From NCBI GenBank assembly GCA_048213135.1, contig PS015061.1:142444-177368 (forward strand): a stretch of DNA of 34,925 nt, read 5' to 3'. Position 1 is the first letter of the stretch. Each line of letters opens with the position of its first letter. Source of the stretch: Reclinomonas americana ATCC 50394 (lineage: Eukaryota). Of this stretch, positions 402 through 30,612 are shown piece after piece. A program made the position numbers and the translations under genes. The notes below the pieces were generated by a model. That model searched no databases. It had not been told where the DNA came from and saw nothing but the letters and a program-made list of their open reading frames with translations.

Positions 402-1464
402 GTGCTGTGTTGTGTCACCACTACGATCTGAGTCGGCGCATGCAAGAGGATGTGATTGCAAGCAGCCCGCCACTCTTGTGGACGTTGGGCGACGATGATG
501 GCGATGATGATGATGATGACGGCGGTGATGAGGGTCGCATGTACCAACAGCTGCTCGCTCGCTTTCGGGAGACGTTGCAGCAGGCGAATGCGTTGCGTCT
601 CGAGCTGGGGCCGTGCATCGCTTCTCGTCTATCCGCGCTCACTTCTTCGACTTGACACCAGCTTCTCGCTGCTCGGTGGCGATGGTGAGACACCTCTTCA
701 CCGACGAGTGTGCCGACTGGCCATCCAGAGCCTCGGATCGCCTCTGTGGGGTGCCGAGGGAGTTGCGTTCACCCCCCTCTCTCTCGCATCCCTCCCCACT
801 TGTTGCTCACTGCACCACAGAGAGAAATGCTGCGCTTCCTGCACCGACTGCGTGGCCTCGCCCGCCAGTCGCTTGCCGTGTGCTTTGTCACCGTGCCCAA
901 GTGCATTCACACTCCGGCAGTGCTCACTGGCGCCGCCCATGCCGCTGATTTTGTGTACGACATGGAGTCGTTTGTTGGTGAGCCTATTTCCAACCCGCTC
1001 CTCTCTCTTTCTTTTGCATACCCCTCACCCTCCTCGTCTATCCTCACACAAGGCGCCAACATCAACGTCAGCGCCTACGAGCAAAAAGAATTCAGTGGGT
1101 GGCTGACGGTGGAGAAGCTGCCCAAATTGAATTCGCTCGTGGCCGTGCTGCCAGACAACATGAAGTACGCCTTCAAGATGCAGCGGAGAAAGATGACGAT
1201 TGAGCGCTTCCATTTGCCTCCCGAGGAGTCGCGAGGTACCGGGAATCTTGTTCTCCCTTCCCTTCCAGTGAGACTCACTGTTGTTCAACAGCCGTGGACG
1301 AGAATCGACCCAAGTACGACCCATCATCGTCATCGTCGTCATCGTCATCGCGCAACACGTCGGCAGCCTCAGCATCACAGACACCCTCATCAACCGCTGC
1401 AGCAGCACCGTCAGCCCATAGTGGTCCCCGAGTGACGCTGACAAAGAGAGAGCTAGACTTTTAA
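402..1464 (+). CDS. ELP4: Elongator complex protein 4 (ELP4/PAXNEB), 5'-partial, spliced
   Basis: Spliced exons (402-591, 662-761, 821-~976, ~1053-1235, ~1292-1464) give CHHYDLSRRM...RVCRLAIQSLGSPLW...MLRFLHRLRGLARQSLAVCFVTVP...EKLPKLNSL...YAFKMQRRKMTIERFHLPP...KRELDF*. SLGSPLW, HLPP and the C-terminal LDF are ELP4 hallmarks. Upstream exons lie outside the window. Confidence 0.9.
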
Positions 1465-1508
1465 ACAAGTATTTGTCTATACGATGCGTCCGATTGATTC
1501 CCACAACC

Positions 1509-3796
1509 TCAGTCGACATCGGTGCGCTCGGCGTCTGGCGGCTCAGCCGCATCGTGCGCGCCACTGCCCTCACCACCACCGCCGCTCACCTCACCCACAC
1601 CGTCCTCGTTGTCCTCATAGTCCTCTGCGACAGATGAATCAGCAAACGAAAGCAAGAACGAGGTCATTGCTCCCCGCCCACACTCACCCGTGCGCATGTC
1701 GAGCAGACCAAACTCGTCGTCCTGCTTACGCGTGCGCTCGTACTCAATGACCTGCATGTTTGGGTCTGGGTCGGGCGCGTAAGTGTTCTGCAGGTAGCTG
1801 GCCGCCAGCGGATCGTCAATGATCAGCGTGAATGGCTCCGTGCCACGCGACAGCTATGCACACAACAACAATAGCGTCAATCGCCACCCAGCACATCGCA
1901 TCATCACAACAGCACAATCGCCACGCACTCTGTTCAGGTGGTCGAGGAACTCGCCGAGACGTCCGCGCTCCGCCACCGTGGCCGAGTCGCCGAGCGAGAA
2001 CGAGCCCGTGGCCACACGCAGATTCTCCTCCACCTTCTTCAGCAGGCCCTCCAAGCTCGTAAACATGCCGCCGAGGGTGCCGCGCACCAACTTCAGCTCC
2101 AGCTCCGGAATCTCAATGGTGGCCGACTCGGACTTGAGCAGATCGCGGTTCATGTCCTCCGGCTCGGTCACGCGGAAAATAATGCGACGACCGCGCGGCT
2201 TGATGGCGCCACCGCTCTTCACGTCCACACTGCGGTGACCGCACATGACGCACGTGAAGGCCATGATGACGATCTCGTCAAAGTACGGGATCTCTGCGAC
2301 CGGATAAGTGACCCACACAACCGCAAGCTGATCACCAAATGAGCACGCAACTGGTGACCATCATCTTGATGTTGCCGGGCGTGTGGCACAGCGGGCACAC
2401 CTCCGGGAACTCAATCACCTCCTCCGGAGCCTCCGCACGCTCCTGCAGCGCCGCCGCCGAGTCGACGTCGTGCAGCAGTTCCGCATGGCGACCACCAAGG
2501 GCGGCCGACACGGCGTGAACCGGGTCCTGACGGACGGGAGCGCCCTCCTCGCCGCCACTCTCACCACTCGGGATGCCGAGGGCGCGATTGTCCTCCTCGG
2601 TACGCATCCACATCTCCACATCGAGCTGCGGATCGCGCGCCGGAGCGGTCCTGTTTATGGGGGGAAGGGTGATGAGGGGCAGAGTGAGCAAGCAAAGAGG
2701 CAGGTGACGCAACAGGCTCTGGATGTGCGAGTTGCCAGCCGGATCACGAATGAGCACGGTGAACTCTGTGCGACCCTCGGCGTACAGGCGCAGACGACCA
2801 ATGAACTCGTTCAGCTTGGCGTGCGACTCGGGGTCGATGTGCAGACGTGCCGGCTGCGGGAAGACGTGAGATATTGCAACAAACAAGGTTCAATCTCTCA
2901 TCCCAGCACGCACCTGCTCAGCCTCCAGATCGTCGGCCACCGACGTCAGCAGGCCCTCGACTGCCAGTCGCGAATGAGAATAAGAAAGAGCACTTTTCCT
3001 CTACTACGCGATCGCTGCACACACCCGTGGTGAGGAGACCGCGACCCGACGGCGGCAACTCCAACTCCAGCTCGGGAATGATCATCGACGCAAAATCGCT
3101 ACGCACGACCTGACGCGACACATCCTCCGGCTTCTGCACCTTCAGCGACCACAGCGTGCCACGCGGACCAAACACGCCACCGAACTTGACCTCGGTGTTG
3201 CGCAGACCGCACTCTATGCGCACACGCACATGAGCAACGAACGAGACAACTGCGCGACGGCGACTGGCGATCAGACCTGGGCAATCAAACGACATGACAA
3301 TGACCTCACGGAAGTGGGGAATGTCGACGAGCAGGATGCGCGTGGTGCCCTGCGCGTGGCATCCCATGCACAGACTCTCCACGATCGTCGGCTGCACACA
3401 CCAATCATCAGTGATGGATGAGTCGGAAAATCTACTCAATTGAAGACAACGCACTCCATCGACAGTGTCATCGCCGGGACGGTGGTACAGATGATCCTCC
3501 GGCTCACCAGTCGGCGTCGCAGTGGCGTCGACGACTGCACACACAGAAAGAGAGTGGGAGATGAGTCCAAAAAAAGGCTTCTGTGCGTTGCATGACACCG
3601 CCCCACTGTGCGTGTGGAATGCACACGCGCACATAGAGGTCGATGATAGGCGTGGAGAGACAGAGAGGCGAGCGCGCGTGTGACAAGCCATGTGCACATC
3701 CACACTTGCACGCACGCACTCACCAGCCGGGGCAGCAGCAGCAGCGGAGTCAGCGGCAGCAGCAGCAGTGGGTTGCTCAGGGGTTGGATCAGCCAT
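1509..3796 (-). CDS. ZPR1: Zinc finger protein ZPR1 (two C4 zinc finger + A/B domain modules), spliced
   Basis: First module: ESLCMGC...[31 protein letters not shown]...[20 protein letters not shown]. Second module: EVCPLC...[28 protein letters not shown]...[16 protein letters not shown]...[19 protein letters not shown] at 3796, TGA at 1509-1511. Confidence 0.95.
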
Positions 3797-3907
3797 TGCA
3801 ACAAGCAGAGAGAGAGGTGTGATCGCGCACACACAAAGGACGAAAGAAGAGTGATGAACTCCGCCGATCCGCCAATCCGCCATCACTCCGTCGCCTTTGC
3901 TTTGAGA

Positions 3908-4212
3908 ATGCGCATCCTTGTGGGCGTAAAGAGAGGTACGTTGCATCCTCTCCTCTGTCTCTCTCATTGCCACGACACGTCACTCACTGCTTGCACACAG
4001 TCATTGACTACGCACAGGTCTGGTCTCACACGCACACTCTCCACTCTCTGCACGATGCTCACTCTGTGTGTGCGTGTTGCACAGCGCATTCGAGTGCGTC
4101 CTGATGGGCTCGACGTAGTCAAAGACGGCGTCAAGTTCTCCATGAATCCCTTTGATGAGATTGCAGTCGAGGAGGCCGTCAGACTCAAGGAGAAGAACGT
4201 GGCCACAGAGGT

Positions 4213-4284
<72 letters not shown>

Positions 4285-5424: not shown

Positions 5425-6644
5425 ATGAGCTCTGCTTCTTTGCCGTCACCGCAGCGGTCGCCGCGTGTCACAACAGACCCTGATTCGTTGGAAGGTGCGA
5501 ATGATCACACACTCAATGAGAATGAGAGTCGCGATGATCCAACTGGGAGTCGCCAACACCAATCAACCTCTCTTGTCACTTGCTCTCTCTCTCACACACA
5601 CACACACACACTACTGCCTCTCTGTTGCTCTCTTGTTGTGCTCACTTCTCTCTTGGCGCAGAACCCATTGAGGAGAAGAAGGATGCGGACATTATCGAGT
5701 TCCTGCACATGATGGGCCTGCTCAAGGTGCGTTCTCTCTCTCTCTCTGTGGCCACACACGCACGCACGTGCTTGCACATCCACCACGATCACCGCTGAAT
5801 GCGAGCGAGTGTGAGAGTGAGTGTGAGAGAGAGTCGCGGCAATGCTCAACACGCGCGTTTTGAGGCCCCACTGTGCGCTCACTGTCCACGTGTGGCATGT
5901 GCAGAGGACACTCCGAGCGGGTTGGGTGCGAAACGGAGTCAAGCAGCCGGAGAGTGTCGCCGATCACTCGTTGCGTACTCAAATCATGATCCTCTCCTTC
6001 TCTCGCACACACGCACGTGCTCACTGGTGTCTCTCTCTCTTGTACACAGCTTCCGGATGGCCATCATCAGCATGCTTGTCGACGATCCCACGATTGACAG
6101 GTTCGATTGCCTCGTTGTAATAGGTACACTCTCTCCAGTCACTCGTCCGCTCACTCTCTCCGCGCAGAACACGACTGCTGAAGATGTCGCTGATTCACGA
6201 TGTGGCGGAGGCACTGACGGGCGACATTACGCCGCACGATGGAGTGTCGCGGGCAGAGAAGCTGGAGCGGGAACGAGATGCCATTCGCACCATGCGCCGA
6301 TTGCTTCCACACTCGGGCGGCTCGTTTGGCGATGAGATGGTGGAGTTGTGGGACGAGTACTCGGCGGGTGAGTCGCCCACGGCCAGGTTGGCCAAGGACC
6401 TCGACAAGTTGGAGATGATTCTGCAGGCGTTTGAATACGAGAAGGGTGTGTGTTGTTGTTGTTTGTTTTTCCGCACGTTCTGTTTCTGAAATCACTCACC
6501 ACTTCTCGCTTCCGCGCAGAGCAATCGTTGAACCTGGAGGAGTTCTTCATGTCAACAGACGGCACGTTCTCGCATCCGTGGGTGGTCGACATTGTCAAGG
6601 AGCTGTACGTGAAGCGGGCCGAACACAAGTTCGGAATCGAGTGA
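5425..6644 (+). CDS. HDDC2: HD-domain 5'-deoxynucleotidase (HDDC2/YGK1/YfbR-like), spliced
   Basis: IEFLHMMGLLK|RTLRAGWVRNGVKQPESVADHS|FRMAIISML...KMSLIHDVAEALTGDITPHDGVSRAEKLERE...ELWDEYSAGESPTARLAKDLDKLEMILQAFEYEK...LEEFFMST. The start codon assignment is tentative. Confidence 0.92.
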
Positions 6645-6838
6645 GTTGCTGTTAGAGAAAGTGTAGGAGGGAAGCGTGCGTGTCATATGGCGCTTGGCGT
6701 CTCCGCGAATGAAGAATGTATGCATGTTGTTCAACTGTTACAACACACGAGACGACGGAGAGGGAAGGAGAGAGAGGGAGAGATAGTAACAACACACGAG
6801 CCTGTACATTAATTTGTATGCATTGCATGGATAAAGAT

Positions 6839-8867: not shown

Positions 8868-11800
8868 TCAACCGGTGCCATCTGCAGCTGGGCGAGGCGA
8901 CGATGTAGGCGTTGTGGACGACGATGAAGGCGCCGACGTTGTTGTGCTCGAGGCGGTGACGGTGGTAGCGGAGGCAGCAGCAGCGGTAACGGAAACCGTT
9001 GGTGGTGCGGCGGCAGGACTGCGCGGCGCCAGAGCTGCAGAGGCCGCTGCGGCAAAAGCGGCGGCGGCGGCAGCAGCTGCTGCGAGCGTGCTGGTTCCCG
9101 TGTGATCCGAGGCCTCCAGCGACGACACTGAGTCCAGGTTGCCGGCGAGACCGTCGTGCAGACTCGGGCTGCTGGTGACGCCGACCACTTCCTCTTCCAT
9201 GCCGGCCTCCAGCAGCCCGACTCGCGAAAAGTCCTCCTCGGCCTCCTTGTGGTAGCCGTGCAGCTGCAGCAGTCGTCCGCGATTAATGTACGCGTCGACC
9301 AGTGTCGGTCGCAAGATGATGGCCTGTGCGGTGGTGAGCTGGTTGCGAAGGAAAAATGATCAACGCGCAGCAAAGACGCACCTGGTTGAATCGCTCAATG
9401 CCCGCCGCGTGCTCACCCAGCTCAACGAGCAGGCAGCCGAGGTTGAGCAAGGCCTCGGCGTGAGTGGGGTCCAACTCGATCACACGCAGGTAGTCCTCCA
9501 GAGCGGCTTGCTGCTTGCCGACACGGTCGTACAGTAGACCACCTGTGAATGGCACAAGTGAGGTTAGCGCAAGAGAAAAAGATGGAGAGGCTCACGTCCA
9601 CAACGCAACGATTGTACCACGCCGAGGCATCGTTCGGGTTGGTGCGAATGGCGGCCGTAAAGTCTTGCAGCGCGTCGGCAGTGTGCCCCAGCAAGTTTTG
9701 CACCACGCCACTGTGACACGGTCAGTCAGTGCGATGGAGTGGAGAGAGAATAGAATGTTCACACCGCACGGGAGCACTCACCGATTGCAGTAGACACCCG
9801 AGTGCACCAGACCCATGCTCATGCACGTGTTGTAGTCGTCGAGGCTCAGTTGCAGATTGCCGAGCTGACGGTGCAGCTGACCGCGGTTGTAGTACGCCTC
9901 GGTCGACGGCACCAGCTCCAGACTCTGCGTGTAGTCCCACAGTGCCTGCATCGAGTGTTAGTACAAACGAGGAGGATGGAATCGGGAAGGTTGTACCTGC
10001 TCCAGATTGCCCAGATGATGATTCAGCTTGCCACGCTCTCGCAACACCTCGGCGTTCTGCGGCAACAGTGCCACCACGGCGTTGAGGTCACGCAGCGCGT
10101 CCTTCAGACGGCCAAGTGGGCACAGCAGCTTGGCGCGGTTCAGACGTGCGAGAACAAACGAGGCGTCTGCTCGAAAATGCCAAGTCAGCATTCATCCACG
10201 ACAGCAGATCTTCTGACGACGCGCACCAGTCTCCACTGCTAGCGTGAACAACGCGAGAGCCTCGTCAGCACGACCCAGATGTGCAAGAACCGCTCCGCAG
10301 TTGCTGGCGTGCGAGGCGCGCACTTCAACAGGGTCCACCTATTCAACGGAAGGATGTCACACACCACGCACAAACAGCCCCTCTTCGCAGCATACACACA
10401 CCTCCAACGCTCGTCGGTAGTCGGCCACGGCCGCATCCACATCGCCGAGTTCATGCTCTACTTGCGCGCGCATGGCATGTGCCGACTGCAGCCGCTCGTC
10501 AATCTCAAGTGCTCGATCGAGCGCCGCCTTGGCTTTGAGCAGAAACTCGCGGCGCATCTCTGCGCTCTCGCACGGCAGCGACATGAGGCACATGGCGCGA
10601 ACCTGTGTCCAACACGCCGCTGCGTCAGCACCAACACATTCGGTGATGCATGTGTGTACCGGCAACTCCACTCACCAAGTGCGCCGCCGCGTGGTTGGCG
10701 TCGAGCTCCACCGCCGTATCGGCATCCATCAGACCCATCTGCGGTCGACCACATCGGTAGTGCAGTCGCGCGCGGCCAACAGCCGCGGCGATAGAAGCGG
10801 CGTCGGACTGCAGCAGCTCCGTGTACAGAGCACAGGCTTCCTCCATGCGATTGTCAGCAGCCGCCTGCTCGGCGCGCTCCAGCAACGAAAGTGGGCGCGG
10901 TGTGGACGCCATGGAGGATGAAATGGAACGCGTTGAGGAGGCGCGTGAGGAGCGGTTGGAAGACGGCGCGCCAATTGCACTGCTGCTGCTGCCGAGGCGC
11001 AAGAAAGAGGACTTGCGATTGCCTGCCGAGTGGAGCGTGGGTTGTGTGCGCGAGAGAATGCAAACAATACTATCCATACCTCGCGCAATGACCGAGGCCG
11101 ATCGAGAGGGTGGCGGCGGTGGTGGCGGTTCCGATTGTGCCGGCGGAACACTGCTGCGACTCGGTTCGTCGTCCGTGTCCTTCCAGTCGTCGTGCACCAG
11201 TGTGGACACGAGCGGTGAGTCGAGCGATGCGGTCTGTATCACGCTAACGTGAATACGCAAAGGGAGAATGCGGCAAAGGGCCATGCCAAACCTGAATGTC
11301 CTCTGCGACCCATCCATCGTCGGATGTGGCATCGCCCTGCGACTGAACACAACAGCACAGTGAGACGACGATTGGTGGTGATGGAGCGAGAGACGAGCAC
11401 CGCACCGAAATCTGAGCAGAGTGGGGTGAGGAGAATGAAAGCAAAAATCAACTTCAAGTTGATGCACACACACCTGATGTACTGATGGCGCCTTGGCAGG
11501 CGCACCGGCGAGTCGACGGGCCAGGGCGGTGAGGCGATCAACAAGCTCCTCGGCCGACGGTCGTTGATTCGAGTCCGAGTCCTGCAGAGATAGCGAAGTC
11601 CGTGAGGGAGAGAGGTGCGTTCCATGCAGCGCAGACGATTGCTCACCCAACACTCGCAGATAATCTGCGTCAACGTGGGGTCCAAGTCGGGCGGCAGCGG
11701 AGGCCGTCGGCCCTCGGTCACCTGCCGCGCAATCTGCAGCGGTGACATGTCCTCAAAGGGCACGCGGCCAGTGACCAGTTCCCATAGCACCACCGCAATG

Positions 11801-13593
11801 GCGTAGACGTCGGTGCCGGTGGTGGTTATCTGGCGGGGGAGGAGAAGGGGAATGGATCAGGGAGGATGAGGGGGGAGGGAAAGAGGAGAGAGGACAAGGA
11901 GGGGAAGGTGAGGAGGGGAAGGAGGAGGAGGAGGAGGAGAGAAAGAAGAAGACAAGGCAGACGGAGGAGAAGAGGAAGAGGACAAGGAGAAGGAGGAGAA
12001 CTCGAAGTCGAGGAGGAGAGGCAGATGGATAAGAATGAGAAGAAAAAAAGATGCACATGGAGACGAGGCAGACGGAGGAAGAGAAAGAGAGGAGGAACAG
12101 GTGAAGAAGATGATAATGCAGAAAAGTAAACGGCGCATACAGATGAGAAGGAAGAAGGGGTAGAGGACGAAGAAGAAGACTGAGGATGAGGAGAGAAGGA
12201 AGAAGACAAGGCAGGGGGGAGGAGGTGCAAGGTGTCTCTCACTCACTCTTCTTCCGTATCACGATCATCGTAGACTCTGTTTTCTTGCTCTCAGTCTCCC
12301 TCTCTTTGCCCTTTCCGTTTCCATCATCATCCTCTTCTCCTTCTTCTTCTCTCTTCTTCTCTCTTCCTTGTCTTCTACTTCTTCACGTTTTCTCCTCAAT
12401 CTCCTCCTGTCTCCCTTCCTCCTGCACCATTCTCTCTGATTCCCGTTTTAGCGTCATCTTGCTTCCTCATCCTCCTCTTCTTCCCACCATCAACTACTCC
12501 CTTCTCGTCCCTCTCCTCCTCTATCTCCACCGTCTCCTCCTGTCTCCCTTCCTTCTGCACCATCCTCTCTGCTTCCCGTCCTATCGTCATCTTGCTTCCT
12601 CGTCCTCCTCTTCTTCTCACCCTCCACTCCTTCCTCCTCGCCGTCTGTCTCCACTGTCTCCTCCTGTCTCTTCCTCTCCTTCCGCGCTCTCCAGACTCCG
12701 GTAACCAATCTCAATGCATGTACGAAACTTTTGTACGCCACAGATCGGGAGGAATGTACGCCGGCGCATGCATCGCTCGCGTCACCGCATACGCCAGTCC
12801 CACATCTGTGAGCTTCAGTTCGCCCTCCGCCGTGGAGAGCAAGTTGCACGGTCGCACATCCCCATGAATCACTCGACGCTCGTGCAAAAACGCAACACCA
12901 CGCGCAATCTGCAATCCGTACTCCACCACCTTTGTCAGCGGCAACAGCTGCATGCGATGCTCGGCGATAATCGTCGTCAGCGGACTCCCGGGCAAGTACT
13001 CGACCAGAATCGCCTGATACCCAGGCTCATCAATAAACCCATACACCGTGGCGACATTGGCATGCCTAAACAGAAACCAAATGAGCACAACACACATGCA
13101 ATTCGACTTGCGTTCGCGCGTGCGTGCCACACACACCGAGAGCCTCCAATGCGTCGACAGCACTCACGAATGTTGGCCATCGAGTCACGCCCACGCGCCG
13201 CCATTGACAACTCCTTCAACACCACAGTCATGCCCCGCCACTGCGCCAAGTGCACTGATCCATCGCCTGCTCGCCCACATAAGCAACCATGCTGCATAGC
13301 ACAACAAACGCAAGAGCGACACACACACCAGCGCTGATCGTCTGCCCACGCTGCACATCACTCAACGCCACCTCATCCCACTCGTTATCATACTCCTCCT
13401 CGTCATCGGATTCCATCATTGACGACGTGTTGGCAGAAGGATGCTCCTCACTCTCCTCTGCTCCTGTGCCTGCTTCATCATCATCATCATCACTGTTGCC
13501 ATCATCATCATCATCGCCATTGTCAGTCCCGCGTTGCTGTCGTCGTCGTCTGCGTTGCTTGCGCTCAGGCACACTGCCCACTAGTGATGACAT
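8868..13593 (-). CDS. Divergent tyrosine-kinase-like (Raf/MLK-type) kinase with C-terminal TPR repeats, spliced
   Basis: Kinase exons: VHLAQWRGMTVVLKEL...RHANVATVYG...ILVEYLPG...QIARGVAFLHERRVIHGDVRPCNLL...KLTDVGLA...TDVYAIAVVLWELVTGRVPFEDMSPLQIA...RPPLP...ECW|DSDSNQRPSAEEL. TPR exons: AVADYRRALE, LNRAKLL...ALRDLNAVVALLP, AWYNRGLLYDRVG...ALEDYLRVIELDP, AYINRG. The 3' end and some TPR exon borders are uncertain. Confidence 0.85.
11831..12690. repeat. Low-complexity intron: purine-rich half followed by pyrimidine-rich half, with an internal ~80-bp duplication
   Basis: GA-rich 11831-~12225 and CT-rich ~12290-12690. ctcctcctgtctcccttcc...gtcatcttgcttcctc occurs at ~12402 and ~12535. Confidence 0.85.
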
Positions 13594-13875: not shown

Positions 13876-16501
13876 ATGTCTGGACTCGTGGGCGCCAGTG
13901 GGGGATCACTGCAAGCCAAATTCGCGCGCGTCTTTGACTCATTCATTCCCGCGTGGGTCGATGGTGTGTGACAAGAGAGAAGAGAGAAGACACACTGCTC
14001 TCTCTGTCACTCACTCTGTGTCTCACAGCGATTCCGCGTCAGACGCTCATTTGGTACGCATGTAATCTCTATCTCTTTGTGATTGTGCTGGGCGTCGCCA
14101 TCTGGCACTATGCGCGTCTCCAGCAGCGGTGAGTCACTCTTTCTCTCTCTCTCTCACACACACACATACAAGACAGAGATGCCCACACACTTTCTCTTTC
14201 TCTTTAGGCGACAACAACGCGCGGATGCCGAGGTTCAGGCACTGATGGAGGAGGCCGAGTGGCGGCATCAGCAGGCGCACAGCAGCAGCAGCAGCAGGAA
14301 GGGAGTGTCGTTTGTGAGTGGAGATCTCGATGATGATAATGGCGATCATCAGCAGCAAGAGCAGCAGCAACGAGCAAAGGCACCTGTCGTGCCCAGTCGT
14401 TGCGTTGTGTGAAGTACTGTGGAGTTGTCTGTCGGCGCTGTCTGACTGAGTCTGTGTCTGCGTTTGAGTAGCGCTGGATGTGCCGGATGTTGATGTTGCG
14501 CGCGCTTGTCATGATGCCGTGTGTAGTGTTGTTGCTGTTATCATGACAGTTGCCTTGATGCAGCCGCGTGTGGCCGACGCCTCGTTGCAACGATTGTATG
14601 CCGAGGGAGAAAAGTGCGTCGTTTTGGTGTGTGCTGCTGCCTCACTCACTCTCTCACTCATGCTCTGCGACAGGTGCTTGGAACAGGGTCTGCCGCTGGT
14701 GGCGCTGGAGCACTTCCTCGCGTGCTTGGTCGGCTTCCAGAAGACCAAGAGCCGCGGCTTTTCGCAGCTCGCCTCGTGTCTCCACCACATCAGTCAGATT
14801 TATCACCAGCTGGGGCAGTGTTGCGTGGCGTACTTGCGTTGTATTTTTGTTGCAGTCGGCTGCTTACCGCGCGTGTGCGCACACACACACACACAGCCGA
14901 GGAGGCCGTCAAGTACCTGCAGGCAGAGCGCTACATTTATGAGGAGGCGCTGCTGAACATGGACACCGCGCGTCCGCCGGTCGCCGTTTCCAACCGTCGT
15001 CGACAGAGGTTTGGAAAAGGGGAAGAGATAGAGGGAAGGGGTAGAGAGGGAGGATAAGGGAGACAGAGGGGAAGGGAAAGGGGGGAGAGGAGGAGAAAGG
15101 AAGAGAGAGGAAGAGATAAATGGTGCGTGTGATAGAGAGAAAGGAACTTGCGTGGCTTTGCTTGTATGAGTGTGCGAATGAGAGGCAAGATGATGGAAAG
15201 CGAGACGCGATAGGGTTGATGAGTGGCGTGTTTGCTTTTCATGTCTCATGGTCTCTCCCCTCTTCCCTCTTCTCCCTCCCTCCCTCCCTCCTTCTTCCCG
15301 CGATCGCAGCGAGAGCACCACCGGCAGCGACGCCGACGACGCCGCAAGTGTCGGCGGCAACAGCAGCAGTTCGTCGTCGAGGCTTTCGACGCAGGCGCGA
15401 TTGCGAAAGCGCGATCGTCGTGCCTCGCGCAGAAACACCACCGCCAGTTTGGAGGAGGACGAGGAGCGTATGATGCAGGAGTTGCAGCAGCAGCCGCAGC
15501 CGCAGCAGCAAGACGACGATCAGCAGGGTCGTGGAGGAGCCATGACGCAGACCATGCACGCAATGCCTGGCGGAAGAGCTGGCGATTCAGCAACTGCTGC
15601 ATCGGCAACGACCACTGCAGCAGAGGTACTTGGAGTGTTGTCCCGTCGCCGAAGATTTATTGGTGTCAATGTTGACCATTTCACCTTTTTTGTGTTGTTA
15701 TTATGTGCAGCACCCGCTGCTGCGGAGGGCCGAGGAATTTGACCGCCTGAGCAAGCTGTTTGCCGCAGACAAGAACTACACCATGGCGCTCGACTACTCC
15801 GCCAAGGCGATTCGCCTGCGCAAGCAAGTTCTCGGCGACGACAGTGTGAATGACGGCCCATATTTGCAGACATTTCTCGAGAATTATGCGGCGCTCGGAA
15901 GGCAACAGTATGAAGGTGTGTGCTGGTGCGAGTGGACGGGGGGAAAGAGAGAGTGAGAGTGAGGAAGAGAGTGCAGTATTATTCTTTTGTATGTAATACA
16001 GGCACGAGGAGGAAGAGAGAGTGAGTGAGTGAGTGAGTGAGGAAAGAGTGACGTTGCACGTGAAACAGCGGTCGATAAATGGCGCTGTCTGCCGATGCGC
16101 ACCGCAAGAGTGGGCACGCGTTGTGCTCATTGTGCGGTCTCTATCGTTGTGCATGCACTGTTTGTTCGTGAAAAGCGAGAAGCGAGATGAGGGGCGCCTG
16201 CACAGCGAAGAGCGAGAAGGGTATCTCCTTGGTGTGCGTCGCAACGCAGCTTGGTAACTGTGTGGTTGTGGGATTCGTGTGTGCCCTTTGGCAATGTGCG
16301 TGTGTGTGTTGTCATGTCTGCAGAGGCACTGCAACAGCGCAATACGGAAGTCGCGGCCGAGTTCCGCCAGCGAACATTGGCGACAGCGTCGACGGTACGA
16401 ACGACTCACTGTCGCCGCTCCAATGGCGAGTCTCGCGCTTGTGTGATTTACCCTGAATATTGCAGGACGTCCCCCGGGTCGTGTCGAGCGGCGCTCAGTA
16501 G
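13876..16501 (+). CDS. N-terminally membrane-anchored TPR-like helical protein with consortin-N-like segment, spliced
   Basis: In-frame exon chain MSGLVG...WVD|AIPRQTLIWYACNLYLFVIVLGVAIWHYARLQQR (TM helix)...ALEHFLACL...LASCLHHISQIYHQLGQ|SEEAVKYLQAERYIYEEALLNM...AEEFDRLSKLF...ALDYSAKAIRLRKQVLG...DVPRVVSSGAQ*. Confidence 0.7.
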
Positions 16502-19844: not shown

Positions 19845-19877
19845 CGTATCACACACTCTTTAACGCACAGCCCTGGT

Positions 19878-20764
19878 ATGGGAGCGAGCAGTTCTTCTCC
19901 TCGCCAAGGTATGCCGATGCTTTCTGTGTGGCTTCCCTTCTTGCTCCGTGTGCTCACCGTTGTTGTTGTGCAGGCGACCAAGACGTGCGCTATGACATGA
20001 ACCCGCTGCACCTCTCACGAATCAGAAAGTTGTGTCTCCGTTTGGCCCTTCCCTCTCTCTCTCTCTCCTCACTCTGTCCACACACAGCTGCCTGGTGTAC
20101 AACATCCAGGCCACCATCCGCAAGTTCGAGTCGGTGAGCCATGTTGTCATTGGTCTCTGTTGACACACGGTGGCAGGCTCACCATTGCTCAGATCGAGTC
20201 GTCAATGGGGCAACTCAGCAGTGAGGAGAAGAGACCTGTGCAGGAGCTCAAGAAAACTCTGCAGCGACTCGACATCAGCCGACACGAGGTGCGCCTGTCG
20301 GGACGCCAGTGGCACGAGCTGTGCCAGCAGGTGCTGGCTGCCGTGAGCCAGCTGCAGCGAGTCCTGCCCGCCGATTCGCCCGTCGACTTCAACGCCGAGG
20401 TCAGCTCGTGTGCGTCGTGCCGGGTGGTGAAGCGCATGAAGACAGTGGGCAAGGACAACGCGCACGGTTCGTCGGATTCAGGGACTGAGGACGAGGAGGT
20501 GTCGGAGACTGATGACCTGACGGAAGACATTGCAGGTCAGTGCTATGTGGTGTTTTTTCCCGACTTGTGTCGCATCCGTGTGCTGAGTTGCTCACAGAGG
20601 CAGTGGATCTCACACCCCCGCGGCTTCGAGGCCGAACGCTGGTGTCGACAGCGCTCCATGTGGGTCGCCGCGGCGGTCTCTATCTGGAGGTGCAGGCAAA
20701 GACCGGGCATCAGTACTCGTGCTACTTCAGGCCAGCAGAGCGAACGCGGCTTGACTGCGCCTGA
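19878..20764 (+). CDS. Small putative N-myristoylated protein of unknown function, 5 exons
   Basis: MGASSSSPRQ|GDQDVRYDMNPLHLSRIR|NCLVYNIQATIRKFES|IESSMGQLSSEEKRPVQELKKTLQRLD...TEDIA|EAVDLTPPRLRGRTLVSTALHVGRRGGLYLEVQAKTGHQYSCYFRPAERTRLDCA*. All four introns are GT-AG and frame-consistent. The N-terminus matches MGxxxS. Confidence 0.72.
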
Positions 20765-21696: not shown

Positions 21697-21742
21697 TTGC
21701 ACTCGCGACCGCGCGACAAAAGAGCGTTTTTTGTGTAAAGCT

Positions 21743-22300: not shown

Positions 22301-25300
22301 ATGGGATCGCTATTTAGTCGGCGGCGAGGCAGCAACAGCGGCGCCTCATCACCATCACTGGGAAGGAGAGGGCAATCGTCGGCGGCTCTGGTGGGCGCAC
22401 AGGCCTCCGCACCACCCACAGTGCCAAGCATATACACCAAAATCATGATGCTCGGCCACGAAGGTAAGCAAGAAAGAAGAGAGAGAGAGATTGACATACA
22501 GACAGACACTGACTGTCATCTGTAGGGAGTGGAAAGAAGACGCTGTGCTCGGCCATGTCAGGGAACATGGATGGGTGTGTGCTGTTGATTGCTCTCTCTG
22601 TGTACGAGTTGTGTGCGTGACTGACTCGATGTGTGTTTGTGTCAAAAGATACTTCACCTCACAACATTTGCACTTGAACAAGTTGGCCGAGTACACGGTC
22701 ACTCTCAGCGGTCCACCACGAACACGTTGCGTAAGAGCAGCGGGGAAGGGGAAGGGGCGAGAAGAGTAGAGTGTGTGTGACATGGCGATTGTGTTGACAC
22801 GCGCACACACACACTCTCTCGTGCTTATGTGTGTGTGCTGCTGTGCGTGTGTGTGTGTGAGCTTTTGTGTGTGTGCATGTGCGTGTCGGGATTTCCCTCA
22901 TTTCACGGCCTGATTGTGTTACATTTTGTATAGCGGCGGCTCTGCGAGGGACCATGGGCGTGGTTGTTGTGTTTGATGTGCACGACCCGGAGAGCTGGAA
23001 GAATATCCTTTTTGTTGTTGTTGTTGTTGTCGTCGTCCTTTGTGTTTTGTGAGTTGTGTGTGAGTTTCATTCCTTGACTCGTCTGTGTGTGCACCTGCGG
23101 AAGGGTTGGCAGAGTTTGTGCAGAAGAATGGCATGAGGCATAACGTGTGCTACGTTATTGGCAACAAGCGGGAAGGCCGGGAGGCAGTTGCGTGAGAGGG
23201 GGGGAAGGGCAGGGGAAGGGAAAGGGAGGGAAGGGAGATGATTTATACGATTGGGTTGCAGTTGGAAGGGACAAGGGAGAGAGGCGGGATACGAAAGGGC
23301 TGTGTTGATGGGTGGCGAAGGGGAAGGAAGAGAGAGGGAAAGAGTCTCGAGGGGGAAGGGAGGAAGAGTGGGTGTGTGTGTGGATGGCGAAGTAGGGCTG
23401 GTAGCGGTGACGGAGGCGTCTGCTTTATGTTCTGTGCGTGCTCATGGTGGTGGCAGCGGCAGCGAGAAGAAAGAACTAGAGAGAAAGAGGCGTGCTTCGG
23501 TCTTGCTGTTGTTTCCTTCTGCGCGGGTGCTTGAGGAGGAGGGAGAGGAGTGCGGATGTGTGGATGGCGATTCAGAGCTGGTTGCGGTGACAGAGGCGTC
23601 TGCTTTTGTGTTCTGTGCATACTCATGGTGGTGGTAACGGCAGCGAGAGGAATGAGCGAGAGAGAAAGAGGCGTGCTTCGGTCTTGTTGTTTTTTCTTTC
23701 TGCGCGGGTGCTTGAGGAGGAGGGAGAGGAGTGCGAGTGTGTGGATGGCGATTCAGAGCTGGTTGCGGTGACAGAGGCGTCTGCTTTTGTGTTCTGTGCA
23801 TGCTCATGGTGGTGGCAGCGGCAGCGAGAGGAATGAGGGCTGTGGCGAGGGGGAGGTAGAGGGAAAAGAGGTAGATTGTGTGTGGGTGGAGAAGCGAGGC
23901 TGCGTGGAAGCGGTGGAAGGAGGAAATGGAGTGCGAGAGGAATGAGCGAGAGGGAGGTAGAGGGAAAGAGGCGCGCTTGGTCTTGCTTGAGAGGGAGAGG
24001 ATGAGTGCGGGTGTCGCCGGCGAAGCGGGGCTGTGTTAAAGCGGTGGAAAGGGAGAAACAGAGTGTGATGGGCCTGCTGTTTGTACTGGTCTCTTGTTTT
24101 TGCGTACGGAAGAGTGTGTGTGAGAGAGAGGGAGAGAAAGGAAAGTGCGTATGAACGCAAGCGTGGTTGTTTGGAATGTGCGTGTGTTTGCAGTGGGTGG
24201 AGAGTGGTGCTGCGGCTGGTCTATTGTTTGTGTACATTTGTGAATGAGTGCAGCAGTCCGGGCATGCGAGAGAGAGAGAGAGAGAGAGAAAGGGAGGAAG
24301 GAAGGGAAGTGCGTGTGTGTGGGAGAGAGTAAAAGGAAAGTGCGTGTTTTGTTTATTCTCCTTGCAAGTGCTGTGTTCTGGGGCTGGTCTCTTGTATGTG
24401 TGTATCTGAGAGCGAGGGCGGCAGAGTGGGGAGGAGGAAGAACGAAGAATAGAAAGGGGGAACGGAATGTCTGTTGTTTGTTCTGTGTGTGAGTCTCCTG
24501 GTCCTGTACATCTCAATCGAGTGCGGCGATACGTGTGTGTGTGTGTAAGTGAGAGAGAGAGAGAGACAAAAGTGATGTGCGCGTTGGCGAGAGAATTGAG
24601 CCGTGCCTTTGTGTTGGTCTATTCCGAAGCGGGGCAGTGGAGCGGAGGACAGAGCGAAGAGACAACGGGTTCATGAACTGGCATTTATTGCCGTGTTTGT
24701 TTGCTGCCTCACTTCGTTGAGAAGAGAGTCGCTTTTCTCTTGTTGCTCGGTTCTGTCTTGGCCTCGCTGGTCTTTCTCTATACCAGCCTGGTTGCTCAGT
24801 GGCAGTTGCCTTTCAGCTCTTCTTGTCTCGCGCAATGGACCATCTTTCCTGTTGTTGCTCAGTTCTACATTGGCATCGCTGGTCTTCCTCTGTGCCGCTC
24901 AGTGGCAGTTGCCGTTCAGCTTTTGTTGTCTCGCGCAGGGTGAACATCCCCCTGGTGTCGCTCTATGGTTTCTTGACTGCATTCATCATTCTTCTCTGTG
25001 GCCGGCTCAAGGGGCAGTTGCCTTTCTGCTTTTCCTGTCTCGCGCAATGGACCATCTTTCCTGTTGTCGCTCTATGCTTTCTTGGCCGCGCTCATCTTTC
25101 TTCTCTGTGTCAGGCTCAAGGAGTAGCCGCTTCTCAACTACTCTTGCAAGAAACAACCTCCTGTTGTTCCTCCGTTCTGTTTTGGGCGCGCTCATCATTC
25201 TTCTGTGTGTCAGACTCACGGGGCAGTCGCCTCGCAGCTTCTCTTGTGTCTCTCTCAGTGGATCATCCTTTTCTCGGCGGCGATCTTTCCTCTTCCCCTG

Positions 25301-25609
25301 TCTTCTTGCTGGCTCTTTCTTTCATCACGTGTCGTCTCTTGCTTTGCCTCATATATCTCCGCATCGCTCTCCCGACAGCATTCCCCTCCCCACTCGTCTC
25401 ACCACACTGTCCCCCCCTTTTTTTGCTCCCCTTCCCAGGCGGTGAACATGGCCACGGCCTCGGCCACAGCCACCAAGTTCGGCGCCAAGTTCTTCGAGGT
25501 GGACTCGAAAGCGGACACTGCTGGTGTGCGCCGCATCTTCAATTCGCTTTACGACGACATCATCGGCAACATTGTTAATGCGCCACCGGTGCACACCATT
25601 TCGCTATAA
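22301..25609 (+). CDS. Atypical Ras/Rab-superfamily small GTPase with N-terminal MG extension and no C-terminal Cys, spliced
   Basis: MGSLFS...YTKIMMLGHE|GSGKKTLC...ALRGTMGVVVVFDVHDPESWKNI...CYVIGNKREGREA|AVNMATASATATKFGAKFFEVDSKADTAGVRRIFNSLYDDI...TISL*. The order of G1, beta4 (VVFDV), G4 (GNK) and G5-helix5 elements is Rab-like. The last intron is about 2.25 kb. Confidence 0.8.
23375..23838. repeat. Intronic tandem repeat, ~180-bp unit, ~2.6 copies
   Basis: tggatggcga recurs at 23381, 23561 and 23742, with near-identical following sequence. Confidence 0.9.
24790..25075. repeat. Intronic degenerate tandem repeat, ~105-bp unit, 3 copies
   Basis: gctca(g/a)..ggcagttgcc at 24794, 24897 and 25005, each followed by tgtctcgcgca. 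Confidence 0.8.
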
Positions 25610-25891: not shown

Positions 25892-28330
25892 ATGGCGCTT
25901 CTCGCTGCACAAGCAGTGCTTCAGTTGCCAATAGTGGTGGCCAAGGTTCTTTTCTGGCGACAACTCCCGTGTGAAAGAAAGGGTTCTTTTTTAGCAGTCT
26001 GACTGTTGTCCGTCGCCTGTGTGTGTGTCTTTGTGTGCGTGTGCGTGTCTGTGTGTGTAGGCGGTGGGTATCCGCATGTTGGCCGATGGGGCAATGACTG
26101 TGACTCTGGATCGCGTGGCTCCGGCGGCGGTGGCGGTGCCTGTGCGGCTGATTGGGACAGCGTGTCATGCGGTGCGAGGCACGTGCTTGGGCCTTGGTGA
26201 GTGTGTGTGAAGTGTGTGTGCATAAAGGGGGAAGGAGGAGACACGTGCGGGAGATCGGCGAAATGTTGTTTCGAGTGATCATCTCCGTTGGTCTTGGTTC
26301 TCTTGTCGGCCTTGTTGAAGTTGCTTCGCAGTTGTTGTCTGTTCTGCGCGTCTCTCTTGTCTTGTCTTCACTCTCCACTGTGCCTCTGGTGGCTTCTCCT
26401 TGTGTCAGCATCTGCAGTGTCGTGGTCTATGCTGTCTTTGTCTTTTCTACACTCCCCGCCGAGTCTCCACCGCTATGTGAATGGCGGCTTCTCCTTGTGC
26501 AGCATCCGCAGTGCTGTCGTCTGGCGATCTATGCTGTCTTTGTCTTTTCTACACTCCTGCTTTGTTGCTGTCGCTGTCCCTTCGGGTTGCTTCTCCTGTT
26601 GTGTCATCAGTTCTCACTGCCAGCTCTGTTTCTCCTGCTTTGCCTGTGGCCGCTTCTCGTTGTTCTGCGATGTTGTCGGTTCTTCACTCGCCTCTGGTGG
26701 CTTCTCTTTGTGCTGCACCCGTTGGTGTCATCGTTGTGGCGATCTATGCTGTCTTTGTCTTCTCGGCACTCCTGCTTTGTTGCTGTTGCTGTGCCTCTGG
26801 TGGCTTCTCCTGTTGTGTCATGTGTACGTCATTACCAGCTCCGTTTCTCCTGCTTTGCCTGTGACCGCTTCTCCTTGATCTGCGCTGTTGTCGGTTCTTC
26901 AGTTCCCGCACCACTGTGGATGACAGGCTTCTCTTTGTGCACCATCTGCTGCGCTGTTGTCGTCGTTAGCTGCGCTGTTGTCGGTTCTTCGCTCCCCTCA
27001 CTGCTCCACCGCTGCTCTTTTTGGCGGTCTCTGTCTTCGTCGAGAATGCTTGGTTCTTGACGACATCCTCTGCACCGCGGTTGTTGTTTGTTCTGCGCGT
27101 CTCTATTGTGTCCTCCGCTGTGCATGTGGACTCCTCTGTTCTGCAAATCTCTCTCTCTCTCTCTTTCCATCGCCGTGCATACGCTGGCCTCCTATTGTCG
27201 TTGCTATTCATTGCTTCTCGTCGGCCTTGTCGCTGTATCGCCCTTGTCCTCACTCTCTCCCTCTCTGACCAATCCTTTGCTCCCTCTCGCAGTCGGCGTG
27301 GTGGAGGGCGTCACGGTGCTGCTCTTGGAAGGTATCCTCTTGTTCTTCCCCTTCGCGTCTCCTCCCTTTCGACTCATCCCGCGCGCAGGCACATGGGAGG
27401 CCACGCGGCGGCGAATGCGAACGTACGGAATTCACGATGACACAACACATCAGCTGGCGTATGTGGCCGCCGGTGTGACTCTGGTCGCCGTGCCGCTGCT
27501 GTGCTTTACGGGCGCCGGGGCGGCGTACGCGTTCACGGCGGCGGCCGGTCAGCTGCAATCGACGCTGACGTGCTTTGTCGGGCAAGCGTGCGTGGAGCTG
27601 ACGCTGCATCTCGGCAGGCTGGTGATGCGCAACACCGTGGCGGTGATCTCGTACCCGTTCCGGGCGCTGTGGAGGTGGCTGAGGACGGCGCGCGTCGAGA
27701 CCACTGCAGCGGCGGCGGCGGCGGCGGCGGCGGGATCACGGGATGTGGTCACGGCGGGCGAGGCGGCGGAGGAGGAGTGGATGCTGATTGATCTCACCGA
27801 GTCGCTGCTGTCGCTGACGCAGTCGTGCTCCAAGCCGCTGCTGCCGAGCGACGAGACGGCGGCGGAGTCGTTGGTGACGGAGCTGGAGGAGTGTGCGCAT
27901 TTGGTGGGCTGCAAGGTCGATCGCAGGTGCGTGGCGGTGATGAGTTGAAAGGGTGTATGGTCCTTTGCTTACTCAACCTTATGCGCAGCTTTATGGATGT
28001 GGATATTTGCTGCGGTGGTGGCGGTGTCGGCGCTGATGATTGTGAGTCACCGTCGTGGCTCGACGGGTCGATGGGCTCGTCCATCTTTGATGGCAGTGTC
28101 GGTGGCGACGATGATGTGCGGGCGCGGTTGCAGTTGACGATGAGTCGGATTCGTGAGCAGGAGCCGGGTCGGGCGGCGGCGTTGGCGGTGGTGGCGTCGG
28201 CGAATTTGCGGCAGGAGTTGGTGGAGGGGGGGTTTGTGGTGAGTGGGGGGTGGAGGGGGTATTGGGGAAGGGGAAAGAGGTGACTGATGTTGTGTGGCAG
28301 GTGGTGTCGGTGGATCCCGAGAGTGGGTGA
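25892..28330 (+). CDS. Uncharacterised hydrophobic/membrane protein with acidic C-terminal region, 6 exons
   Basis: MALLAAQAVLQLPIVVAK|AVGIRML...CLGL|VGVVEGVTVLLLE|GTWEATRRRMRTYG...LAYVAAGVTLVAVPLLCFTGAGAAYAF...EEEWMLIDL...|SFMDVD...EGGFV|VVSVDPESG*. GT-AG introns are frame-consistent and codons are GC3-rich. Confidence 0.72.
26370..26995. repeat. Intronic degenerate T/C-rich tandem repeats
   Basis: tctatgctgtctttgtctt at 26426, 26528 and 26743; tgttgtcggttcttc three times. Confidence 0.75.
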
Positions 28331-28537
28331 GCCTGGAGGGTGTGTAATGGTGTATTATGGTGAGGTGGGGTGTGTACAGACAGACAGTGAATGCTGTGGA
28401 GGTGTTTAGCATCATTGGCATAACAAAGTCGTCGTTCATTGACATTCATTGCTGCGCACGCGTGCAATGTGGTGAATGTTAGAAACGGATGTGTGCATAA
28501 ATCTGATCGAAACACCAAGCAGTCCAGTGTCTCTAAG

Positions 28538-30612
28538 TCAAATTCGTTTACAGCGACTCCGTCGACGACGACATTCAGAAACAAGGAGCACGCACGTGAG
28601 TGACAACAGCCCAGCACAAGCGACAGACGAAATTGCAAAGCCGACAAACGCCACTGCGGAAGCCGGTGAAGTTGGAGCCACTGAGTTGGGGGAAACGATG
28701 ATTGATAAGTCGCGACGACCACCACCGCTGCTCAGCTTTTCAAAGTCTTGAAACATCACCCATGACAAACCATATACAGAAATTTGCCAAGGAATTGATG
28801 CCAACGGAAGAGATGGTATTCTGCTCGGTGGAAGACGTGAGGAAACGGCAACAAACATCAACAACTGGTTATTCCCGAGAAAGACGCAACTGATAACAAA
28901 TCGCAAACGTATTCCCTCCAGCCGACGCAGTTGGTTGCAAAGTGAGTTGCATGGCATGGAAGCTTGTCTGCTGCTGAATCACTGGCATGTCGGTCGCAGA
29001 AGACGTCGATTGCGAGTTGCAGTCATGCACTGGGGCACTGACAACCCGAATACTCGCATTCAACAGGCCGTATCCGTCACACTCGACAACAGTTGGTACC
29101 AGCGGTTGAAGAATTCTTGGTGAAAGAGACACAACACCAGCGACCACAAGCCCAATACCTGCAAGGGAAAGATCCGCTCAGTCAGCGAGTTCCTCTACTC
29201 AGGTGCGAAACACTGTAACAGCGTAACTTGAGACCAAGTGCGGCTCAGACTGTTCAGAAAATCTGATGGCCACACGAAAAGGGTGAGCATTTGAAGTTGG
29301 AGACCACAAAAGCACGAGGACTGACGCAAGCGTACATAATGCACAAATATACTTCAGCGCGTGGGGTAGATGCGGACATGCGAAGAGAGAGCGTCGAAGT
29401 AGTGGCAGCGATGACTTCAACTGGGGTCTCATCAGAGCGCGCGCTGGCACAGCTCACATGGTCTTGTCTCATGATAAAAACTGTGTCGTTCATGGAAAAG
29501 CCAACTCCAGTGACCTGTGCCAGCAAGTACAAGGATCACACTCGTGGCGAAAAGGGCGGAATTGATTCGCACGCACGTCAAACAAACCGTAATGGACGAA
29601 ACAACTCCCGCGAGGATTGTCTTGGGATTGAAATCTAACGTGCCGACGACCATCAAGACTGTCGGAACTTTAAAGGCCAGCTCCGACGGCACGGACCCTT
29701 GAATGATGCCAGTCGCACAAAAAGAGTAACTGCCAACAATGTTGCCGGTGACGATAGCGATCGCGGTCGTCTCAGTGAACGCAAATGGTGCTGCGGGGAC
29801 ACGCGTCACAGACAAAGACATGCTGCAACTGCGAGGTGATAATCACACAAGAGAACTTACCATAATCTACCCCGTGGCTAGCGGCGGCGTCAGCAGTGCA
29901 TTGATCATCACTGTCGATAATCTTGAAAGCCACTGAGTCCAGTCCAGCGCCCGTTATCGTGGCACGCTGACTCGTCGACACGTCAACTCGCTGCGCGACG
30001 AATTACTTTTTAGCCACAAAGAGTGGCGCACTGTGCTCTACTCTCGTGAGTTGTCTCACCCACGTGCACGTACCGACGGAGAGAGGCCCGTTGATCCAAC
30101 AACTCGTATTGTGTACGACACAAACTCCTCGGATCCGTTGCTAGATGTATCGTAGCACAACAAATACAGTGATGGGTCTGCTGCCGCGACGGCCAGCTGA
30201 AAGGAAAGGTAGTCGTCGCGCGCGAGGTACACCTTGCTCACGCTAATCGTGTCCACACTGGCCGACAGGCAGGTTGAAACTGCCGTCACAACTTTTACCT
30301 GTACAAGCCAAGCCATCAAAAAAACTCATTGCTCCGCCCTCGCAGCCGACTTACATGCACATACTTACGTTGGCATCTGTGTAGCCCATGAATCCTGCTC
30401 CGTTGGTGATGAACATTTTCGTCGTTGAATTCGGCGGCACGGTGTTCTGCGAGAGAACACCCGGACTTACAGCGCAAGCATCTGCAATGCAGTGCACGCG
30501 TGTGTGTGGATACACTGCAGTTACGGAGGCAGTTCAAGGCTTGTGGAGAATGCGAACCGTGTAAAACACAGAGCACCAGCAGGAACAGGATCAACAGACA
30601 CCTCGGGAACAT
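28538..30612 (-). CDS. Type-I membrane protein: signal peptide, four ~100-aa IPT/TIG-like beta repeats, TM helix, basic tail; spliced
   Basis: Signal MFPRCLLILFLLVLCVLH. Four repeats share a P near the start, a GxG(F/L) motif (ITNGAGF, TITGAGL, TVTGVGF, ECDGYGL), one mid-repeat Cys and a late (Y/F)xxC-type Cys. C-terminus AVAFVGFAISSVACAGLLSLTCVLLVSECRRRRSRCKRI*. Confidence 0.72.

Follow-up and report, generated by a model that had tools for sequence, protein, structure and literature searches.

GTTGCGT as a recurrent 5' splice site in introns of Reclinomonas americana and its possible recognition by U1 in a shifted register

The stretch of DNA analyzed here, referred to as the window in its full length, comprises 34,925 nucleotides (nt) of Reclinomonas americana ATCC 50394 (GenBank assembly GCA_048213135.1, contig PS015061.1, positions 142,444 to 177,368 of the forward strand). 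It is a gene-dense eukaryotic region with a G+C content of about 57%, interrupted by N runs at 4285-4400 and 20915-21696. Among the genes identified are those for ELP4, ZPR1, ETFB, HDDC2, a TPR protein, a kinase, a consortin-like (or TPR-like) protein, a GTPase-like protein and a repeat-domain membrane protein. A preliminary description of this DNA, made from the letters alone, listed eleven introns in seven of the genes that begin with the identical heptamer GTTGCGT, and proposed that this heptamer is an unusual 5' splice site (donor) displaced by one nucleotide. A check against the sequence placed GTTGCGT on the named strand at all eleven coordinates, each at the start of an inferred intron (Table 1). 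In the following, these eleven donors are called the class, -1 denotes the last base of the exon and +1 the first base of the intron.

To compare the class with the other donors of the window, a curated set of 44 introns was assembled. All evidence presented here comes from 35 kb. The borders of 25 introns (tier A) derive from a homology profile or from the register of a protein repeat, and their selection was blind to the donor motif beyond GT or GC. The remaining 19 introns (tier B) were defined by open frames and by reading by hand. Most of the curated introns are 51-83 nt long. For ZPR1, ETFB and HDDC2, profiles were generated from fetched homologues, and every in-frame GT/GC...AG alternative lying at most 36 nt from each border was scored. 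Eight introns of the ZPR1 gene, whose product has a closest relative with 48% identity among 5.8 billion proteins, were tested in this way, and position 3276 was preferred over 3264. In ETFB and HDDC2, all six and all four introns, respectively, were the top-scoring alternatives. The third ETFB intron (4211-4475, plus strand) consists of (GA)n around the first N run, so that its coordinates give only a nominal length. An ab initio gene finder trained on the same 35 kb proved unreliable, as it picked 613 for 592, 4023 for 4018, 3264 for 3276 and 10364 for 10401 and split the intron at 5727; its output served to supply candidates only, each of which was verified manually or with a profile. A scan of the window that used 3' signals only did not separate the donor hexamers. 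No Pfam family was found for most frames of the window, and for ELP4 the homology search retrieved no homologues, while a PDB search gave no match with the exon-2 frame and only insignificant RecA-like matches with the exon-1 frame.

Counted over both strands, the window contains 15 copies of the heptamer GTTGCGT, compared with 6.90 ± 2.69 expected, and none of 100 dinucleotide-preserving shuffles contained 15 or more. Eleven of the 15 copies begin inferred introns, and at 58-208 nt downstream of them (2252 nt in one case) a branch-like motif followed by CAG or TAG is present. The share of copies that act as donors is thus 73% for GTTGCGT (11/15), as against 11% for GTGCGT (7/62). Among the 44 curated donors, independent position frequencies predict 0.18 GTTGCGT sites instead of the 11 seen. 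Judged from these sequence comparisons, GTTGCGT is a real and over-represented donor class.

The exact position of the exon-intron border was assessed next to conserved protein sequence. At four of the eleven class introns, removal of the intron restores conserved protein, and cleavage before GTT is fixed there either by a homology profile (ZPR1 at 2713 and 2351, HDDC2 at 5970) or by the 34-residue repeat register of the TPR gene (9609). The ZPR1 profile score of 546.4 dropped to 541.4 when the border at 2713 was moved to GTT/GC, and to 539.7 when the border at 2351 was moved to GTTGC/GT, while GTT/GC at the latter site leads to a stop codon. At HDDC2 5970 the score was 252.5 compared with 246.3 for GTT/GC; among slides of the intron from -6 to +6, GT-AG ends are obtained at slide 0 only, and the upstream exon matches positions 5-26 of the HD_3 profile through its final residue. 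Units 1-5 of the TPR gene keep an exact 34-residue register over three junctions. The junction at 9609 restores the motif YNRG as it stands in units 1, 2 and 5, and a border at GTT/GC would add a residue.

At the other class junctions the following was observed. In ELP4, the sequences flanking the intron at 762 were compared with the PAXNEB profile: the upstream match to positions 198-212 is faint (E 0.23, 10.9 bits at a cut-off of 28), and the downstream exon matches positions 222-343 (E 3.7e-23); the alternative GTTGC/GT with the acceptor moved by +2 is likewise open. Reading through the intron at 14399 runs into a stop, and the exon after the 14820 intron begins at position 23 of the Consortin_N profile (E 0.017, below the cut-off). 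At 22726, the downstream alternative GTTGC/GTAAGAG has no in-frame AG within 18 nt, and at 23187 the corresponding alternative GTTGC/GTGAGAG would read TGA at the acceptor found. The last exon of the GTPase-like gene matches positions 122-160 of the Ras profile from its residue 2, although weakly (E 0.16). In the membrane-protein gene on the minus strand, the class intron belongs to a chain of seven (70, 83, 70, 73, 73, 69 and 70 nt) whose removal yields a single open frame of about 530 residues with a hydrophobic helix and a basic tail at its end. This gene had been labeled as an IPT gene, a name that was not confirmed, as no Pfam family scored above the cut-off.

Table 1. GTTGCGT copies of the window and related donors with T at +3 (slash, exon-intron border)
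Feature	Border	Coordinates	Strand	Length (nt)	Phase	Remarks
ELP4 intron	C/GTTGCGT	592..661	+	70	2	frame open across junction
ELP4 intron	A/GTTGCGT	762..820	+	59	0	open frame
ZPR1 intron	A/GTTGCGT	2294..2351	-	58	1	top of 6 in-frame alternatives
ZPR1 intron	T/GTTGCGT	2651..2713	-	63	2	top of 6 in-frame alternatives
HDDC2 intron	C/GTTGCGT	5970..6049	+	80	2	top of 8 alternatives
TPR-gene intron	C/GTTGCGT	9543..9609	-	67	1	YNRG motif of repeat unit 3 restored
Consortin-like/TPR-like gene intron	C/GTTGCGT	14399..14471	+	73	1	open frame and 3' signals only
Consortin-like gene intron	T/GTTGCGT	14820..14896	+	77	1	open frame
GTPase-like gene intron	C/GTTGCGT	22726..22933	+	208	1	open frame into exon with weak Ras match, profile positions 69-90
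GTPase-like gene long intron	A/GTTGCGT	23187..25438	+	2252	0	phase-0 donor to phase-0 acceptor 25438/25439
Repeat-domain membrane-protein gene intron	A/GTTGCGT	28821..28890	-	70	2	part of 7-intron chain
GTTGCGT, non-donor		12890..12896	-			within kinase coding exon; Pkinase profile positions 54-152 run through
GTTGCGT, no donor use in this reading		34601..34607	+			inside intron beginning 34526; sole copy with G at -1
GTTGCGT, no supportable donor		8017	+			antisense to a gene
GTTGCGT, no supportable donor		17043	-			T/G-rich stretch
Related donor	A/GTTACGC	29159..29227	-	69		only other curated donor without both G at -1 and G at +5
Related donor, kinase gene	A/GTTTCGT	11830..12728	-	899		low-complexity intron; hand read; outside curated counts
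Related donor	A/GTTTAGT	34309..34372	+	64		open frame only; outside curated counts
Related donor	A/GTTGTGT	20029..20087	+	59		ab initio parse only; outside curated counts

Apart from their first bases, the class introns resemble the other introns of the window. All 44 curated introns, those of the class included, have GT...AG ends. A CTCAC branch motif was found in 7 of 11 class introns and in 14 of 33 others, with the branch A located 11-37 and 9-38 nt from the 3' end, respectively. The acceptors are CAG or TAG in the class as in the others, and the median lengths are 70 and 67 nt. Similarly, the intron interiors gave mean local alignment scores of 8.8 within the class, 8.1 among the others and 8.75 between the two groups, with maxima of 15 in the class and 27 among the others. 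By these sequence features, the class introns are ordinary U2-type GT-AG introns.

The bases around the border, in contrast, set the class apart. None of the eleven class donors has a G at -1, compared with 27 of the 33 other curated donors (Fisher's exact test, p = 1.6e-6), and the same difference was obtained with tier A alone (0/4 versus 19/21, p = 0.0012). C stands at +5 in place of the usual G in 11 of 11. The lack of G at -1, the replacement of G at +5 and the anti-correlation of an unexpectedly frequent GTTGCGT with G at -1, all put forward in the preliminary description, were thereby borne out. As for the ordinary donors, described there as mostly G/GTGCGT, G/GTGAGT or G/GTGTGT, these three hexamers make up 16 of the 33 other donors, and 13 of the 16 have G at -1.

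Across the curated donors, exon-side and intron-side strength compensate sharply. All 32 ordinary donors carry a G at -1 or at +5 (23 at both positions, four at -1 only and five at +5 only). The twelve donors that have neither are the eleven class sites and A/GTTACGC at 29227, and all twelve have a G at +6. G at -1 is present in 9 of 9 GTG[AT]GT donors and in 4 of 7 GTGCGT donors. The five ordinary donors that lack it are GTGCGT (three cases), GTACGC and GTAAGT, and in the four ordinary donors that lack G at +5 the exon ends in AG. The class, with 0/11, also differs in this respect from the GTGCGT donors (4/7; Fisher's exact test, p = 0.011). Furthermore, the C at +5 of the class is fixed (11/11), whereas the matching position of GTG[N]GT donors is C in 7 of 16 (p = 0.003).

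Further donors with T at +3 had been described as T-inserted variants that follow a base other than G. The sites at 29227, 34309 and 12728 were read and fit this description, whereas the one at 20029 comes from an ab initio parse only. Kinase profile matches, covering positions 54-153 and 179-244, were obtained for the exons on either side of the 12728 intron. The first half of this long intron is purine-rich (GGAGGA-type) and the second pyrimidine-rich, and weak Rfam matches to MIR2118 (E 0.95-0.97) lie inside it. Contrary to the earlier account, donors with T at +3 also occur after G, namely G/GTTTGCG at 4896, G/GTTCGAT at 6101 and G/GTTTGTT at 29587. All three have a G at +5 and are therefore normal-register sites.

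From the class, its cleavage site at the four junctions fixed by protein sequence and its base statistics we infer how it would be read. In our best explanation, to which we give about an even chance, GTTGCGT serves U2-type introns as an additional, fixed kind of 5' splice site and is most likely recognized by the U1 small nuclear RNA (snRNA) one nucleotide out of register. The class shares the GCGT core of the commonest normal donor, G/GTGCGT, and would present it displaced by one nucleotide into the intron. The intron G at +1 would stand in for the G at -1 in pairing with U1, the U at +2 would be the single mismatch, and the bases from U at +3 to U at +7 would pair as +2 to +6 do at a normal site. 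The cut, directly before the first G of GTTGCGT, would be set later at the GU by U6, U5 and Prp8. U1 of R. americana would have a G opposite the C at +5, as reported for Mastigamoeba. The fixed C at +5, together with the finding that ordinary donors without G at -1 are mostly GTGCGT, suggests that C takes part in base pairing in R. americana.

Pairing was modeled with two U1 5' ends, the textbook sequence and one with G at position 5, both of which are assumed. Forced-register energies were mostly positive since isolated pairs are penalized, and only the pair counts were used. Against the textbook end, class donors form 4.2 base pairs in the normal, 6.64 in the shifted and 6.55 in the bulged register, compared with 7.6 in the normal and 4.5 in the shifted register for the other donors. 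With the register left free, the mean duplex energy was -0.9 kcal/mol for the class and -6.5 kcal/mol for the others with the textbook end, and -5.7 and -8.5 kcal/mol, respectively, with the assumed G at position 5. The duplex model places the G at +1 on C9 of U1, as the shifted register predicts, at 10 of 12 sites with the modified end and at 3 of 12 with the textbook end. No snRNA gene was found in the window by Rfam at the gathering threshold, and at E <= 1 only seven low-complexity chance matches were obtained.

Several observations weigh against a shifted U1 register or against the weight of the evidence for it. The sample is small and comes from 35 kb only. Earlier parses had served to train the donor model that helped to pick the tier B ordinary donors, so the share of G at -1 among them is not fully independent and the comparison is partly circular. 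Conserved protein, which had been said to fix several of the borders, does so at 2713, 2351, 5970 and 9609; the other seven of the eleven sites rest on open frames, phase and weak domain matches, and two of them have rival in-frame donors, at 613 for the 592 site (GTGCATC, giving 49 nt) and at 14838 for the 14820 site (GTTGTAT, giving 59 nt). The complete absence of G at -1 in the class is only mildly below the compositional background (P 0.02-0.04 for 0/11). Under a shifted register, the exon would be expected to end in CA (C at -2, A at -1), yet the last base is A at only 4/11 class sites and the last two are CA at 3/11, and C is the commonest base at -1 (5/11). The G that follows GTGNGT donors (10/16) is not copied by the class (2/10). 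Finally, the class pairs poorly with textbook U1 in every register (best value -2.5 kcal/mol), and the shifted model therefore needs a change in U1. The original idea that GTTGCGT is GGTGCGT in a +1 register is partly supported, in that the class lacks the G at -1 and +5 and carries one at +6, but its fixed C, its following base and its few cases of A at -1 argue against a simple canonical donor with an added T.

The closest alternative is that U1 pairs in its normal register and the U at +2 or +3 is bulged, in which case G at +1 and U at +2 would keep their partners and GCGU would pair as in GUGCGU. The pair counts given above are practically equal for the two registers, a one-nucleotide bulge at +2/+3 is a validated register in human (PMC4856993), and as three of the seven GTGCGT donors of the window lack G at -1, a bulged site without this base is conceivable. 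A bulged helix would, however, gain from G at -1 even more than GTGCGT does, yet the class never has this base, and in the nearest-neighbor model the G at +1 comes to lie on C8 of U1 at just one of the 12 sites when the G5 variant is used, and at none when the textbook end is used. In human, moreover, this register is predicted for only 68 of 201,541 sites (PMC4856993). We regard bulging as unlikely. The shifted register appears to be favored over it, indirectly, because G at -1 is wholly absent and only in the shifted register is the U1 partner of this base already taken.

Somewhat less likely still, in our view, is that the class is served by its own additional U1-type snRNA (or by some other factor) with full complementarity to GUUGCGU, acting beside the main U1. 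The invariance of the heptamer and the fixation of C at +5 would follow directly from such a factor, as would the lack of a visible exon-side consensus, and the poor pairing of the class with textbook U1 in any register points the same way. Standard and modified U1 variants are reported to occur together in one species, Physarum (bioRxiv 10.1101/2022.06.08.495308). The window yielded no gene for such an RNA in the Rfam search, though, and a single change to G5 in a lone U1 already gives a workable modeled helix. The donors GTTACGC, GTTTAGT, GTTTCGT and GTTGTGT, in addition, would not match a dedicated sequence.

We consider it improbable that no special recognition is involved and that the class results from misplaced borders, from a T added to GTGCGT during assembly, or from chance. 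With the acceptor kept, a GC-AG border at GTT/GC preserves an open reading frame at 10 of 11 sites, and the rival donors near 592 and 14820 would also permit other borders; but at the four testable junctions GTT/GC lowers the profile score (2713 and 5970), creates a stop (2351) or breaks the repeat register and its YNRG motif (9609), and it was rejected there. Splicing at the downstream GT (GTTGC/GT), which the preliminary description had named as an outcome that would speak against its proposal, can be joined to an in-frame AG no more than 18 nt away at only 3 of 11 sites, scores lower at 2351 and meets a stop at 23187. A T inserted at random by the assembler would follow all 62 GTGCGT copies alike and show no tie to the base at -1, instead of the difference in donor share that was observed, and chance is opposed by the shuffles, none of which reached 15 copies. 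Least probable is that the class represents introners, which are mobile intron elements, or a divergent U12-type group: a rigid heptamer without exon-side consensus is reminiscent of both, but class introns resemble one another internally no more than other introns do, and the CTCAC-type branch motif, its distance, the acceptor and the length are as in other introns, whereas U12-type introns start with an RTATCCTT-like 5' motif and have a TCCTTAAC-like branch site near the 3' end.

Some further features of the window were recorded. One ab initio candidate intron, at 27332-27388 on the plus strand (G/GTATCCTC), resembles the U12-type 5' motif, and its 3' part, TTTCGACTCATCC...GCGCAG, shows no clear U12 branch site. 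The long class intron of the GTPase-like gene (23187-25438) contains head-to-tail repeats of about 180 nt at 23380-24000 on the plus strand (compare 23400-23460, 23580-23640 and 23760-23820) and may enclose an intermediate exon. A further intron of this gene lies between 22980 and 23100, its donor being placed only approximately. The encoded protein (22302-25609, plus strand) has a P-loop-like start, NKxE in place of NKxD and no DxxGQ seen on reading, and may, to judge by these motifs, be a degenerate (pseudo) GTPase. The membrane-protein gene (28543-30446, minus strand) is lower in G+C and encodes a repeat-domain type I membrane protein in which Y-x-[FL]-C motifs recur. Ahead of the ELP4 exons read here, a segment of some 25 nt containing GTGAGTGAGCGAGT is repeated at a distance of 129 nt (83-107 and 212-236, plus strand). 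The minus-strand gene at 6839-7820 codes for a protein with recurring PGPG-x-Y motifs that recalls sperm-tail PG-rich repeats and hence, we presume, a flagellate. An overlapping minus-strand frame (7332-8417) matched no Pfam family, in a scan that did not extend to the spliced frames of the 6839-7820 gene, and a plus-strand frame (6713-8209) runs antisense to it.

A wider claim can be formulated, namely that this lineage operates two modes of donor recognition side by side in its major spliceosome and that between one fifth and one quarter of its introns start with an invariant GUUGCGU, read through either a dedicated second U1-type snRNA or obligatory shifted pairing. We regard this as possible but, on balance, doubtful. 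If it were true, shifted registers would belong to the mainstream of gene structure and be under selection, instead of being rarely tolerated exceptions. To our knowledge, the way in which the spliceosome chooses the bond to be cut while U1 is bound out of register is understood solely from a few human sites and from reporter constructs. A genome with a fixed out-of-register donor at many introns, beside normal donors in the same genes, would provide a natural experiment on how labor is divided between U1, which finds the site, and U6 and U5, which fix the cut, as well as on the compensation between exon-side and intron-side pairing and the co-evolution of U1 with its donors. On the practical side, gene finders trained on donors with G at +5 will misplace the borders of the class, as the parses of this window did at 613, 4697 and 14838.

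Shifted-register 5' splice sites in human were reportedly described by Roca and Krainer in 2009, and bulged-nucleotide registers by Roca and colleagues in 2012. Shifted and bulged U1 registers have both been proven in human cells, where the validated non-canonical registers together account for 1.5% of the 201,541 sites (PMC4856993). The human shifted-register sites agree with the reading proposed here in that the G at +1 lies on the U1 base that normally meets the G at -1, the intron pairs are displaced by one, the cut stays at the GU and pairing in the normal register looks hopeless (PMC4856993, PMC9311317). They differ in being rare and individual, whereas in the window a single invariant heptamer accounts for 11 of 44 curated donors. 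In the oligonucleotide used for the human tests, moreover, CA precedes the GU (PMC4856993), a dinucleotide seen at three of the eleven class sites. With the human +2/+3 bulge the class shares the GUU start with one U extra and downstream bases that pair normally (Tan et al., 2016; PMC4856993); the predicted human sites were reduced to 54 by curation, and the class shows no use of G at -1. U12-type introns likewise combine a rigid, extended 5' motif with the lack of a consensus on the exon side, but the motif itself, the branch site and the spacing are different. A search of the literature on registers and donor motifs, which covered accessible text, retrieved neither a GUUGCGU class nor a genome with two coexisting registers at high frequency.

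Parallels are also found among protists in which donors and U1 have changed together. Entamoeba has GUUUGU(U) donors with a U1 that reads ACAAAC, and Mastigamoeba has GUGCGC donors with a U1 that reads ACGUAC (Roy and Bowser, bioRxiv 10.1101/2022.06.08.495308). Entamoeba thus demonstrates that U at +3 can be the donor norm. Both, however, use one genome-wide consensus in the normal register, whereas in the window two registers seem to coexist within the same genes, and a GUUGCGU class is not mentioned for either in the accessible portion of that preprint. In Thecamonas trahens and the Mamiellales (GYGCGY), the main donor is GTGCGT or GTGCGC, like that of the window; in these organisms U1 is reported to be standard, and the same portion of the preprint mentions no shifted subclass (bioRxiv 10.1101/2022.06.08.495308). 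Like the window, Mastigamoeba is rich in G+C and in introns, and its main donors carry C at +4. Its G+C content of 60.7% and mean intron length of 137 bp (PMC8136499) compare with values in the window of about 57% and, as a median, 67 nt. A Mastigamoeba-like U1 with G opposite this C would also account for the fixed C of the GTTGCGT class.

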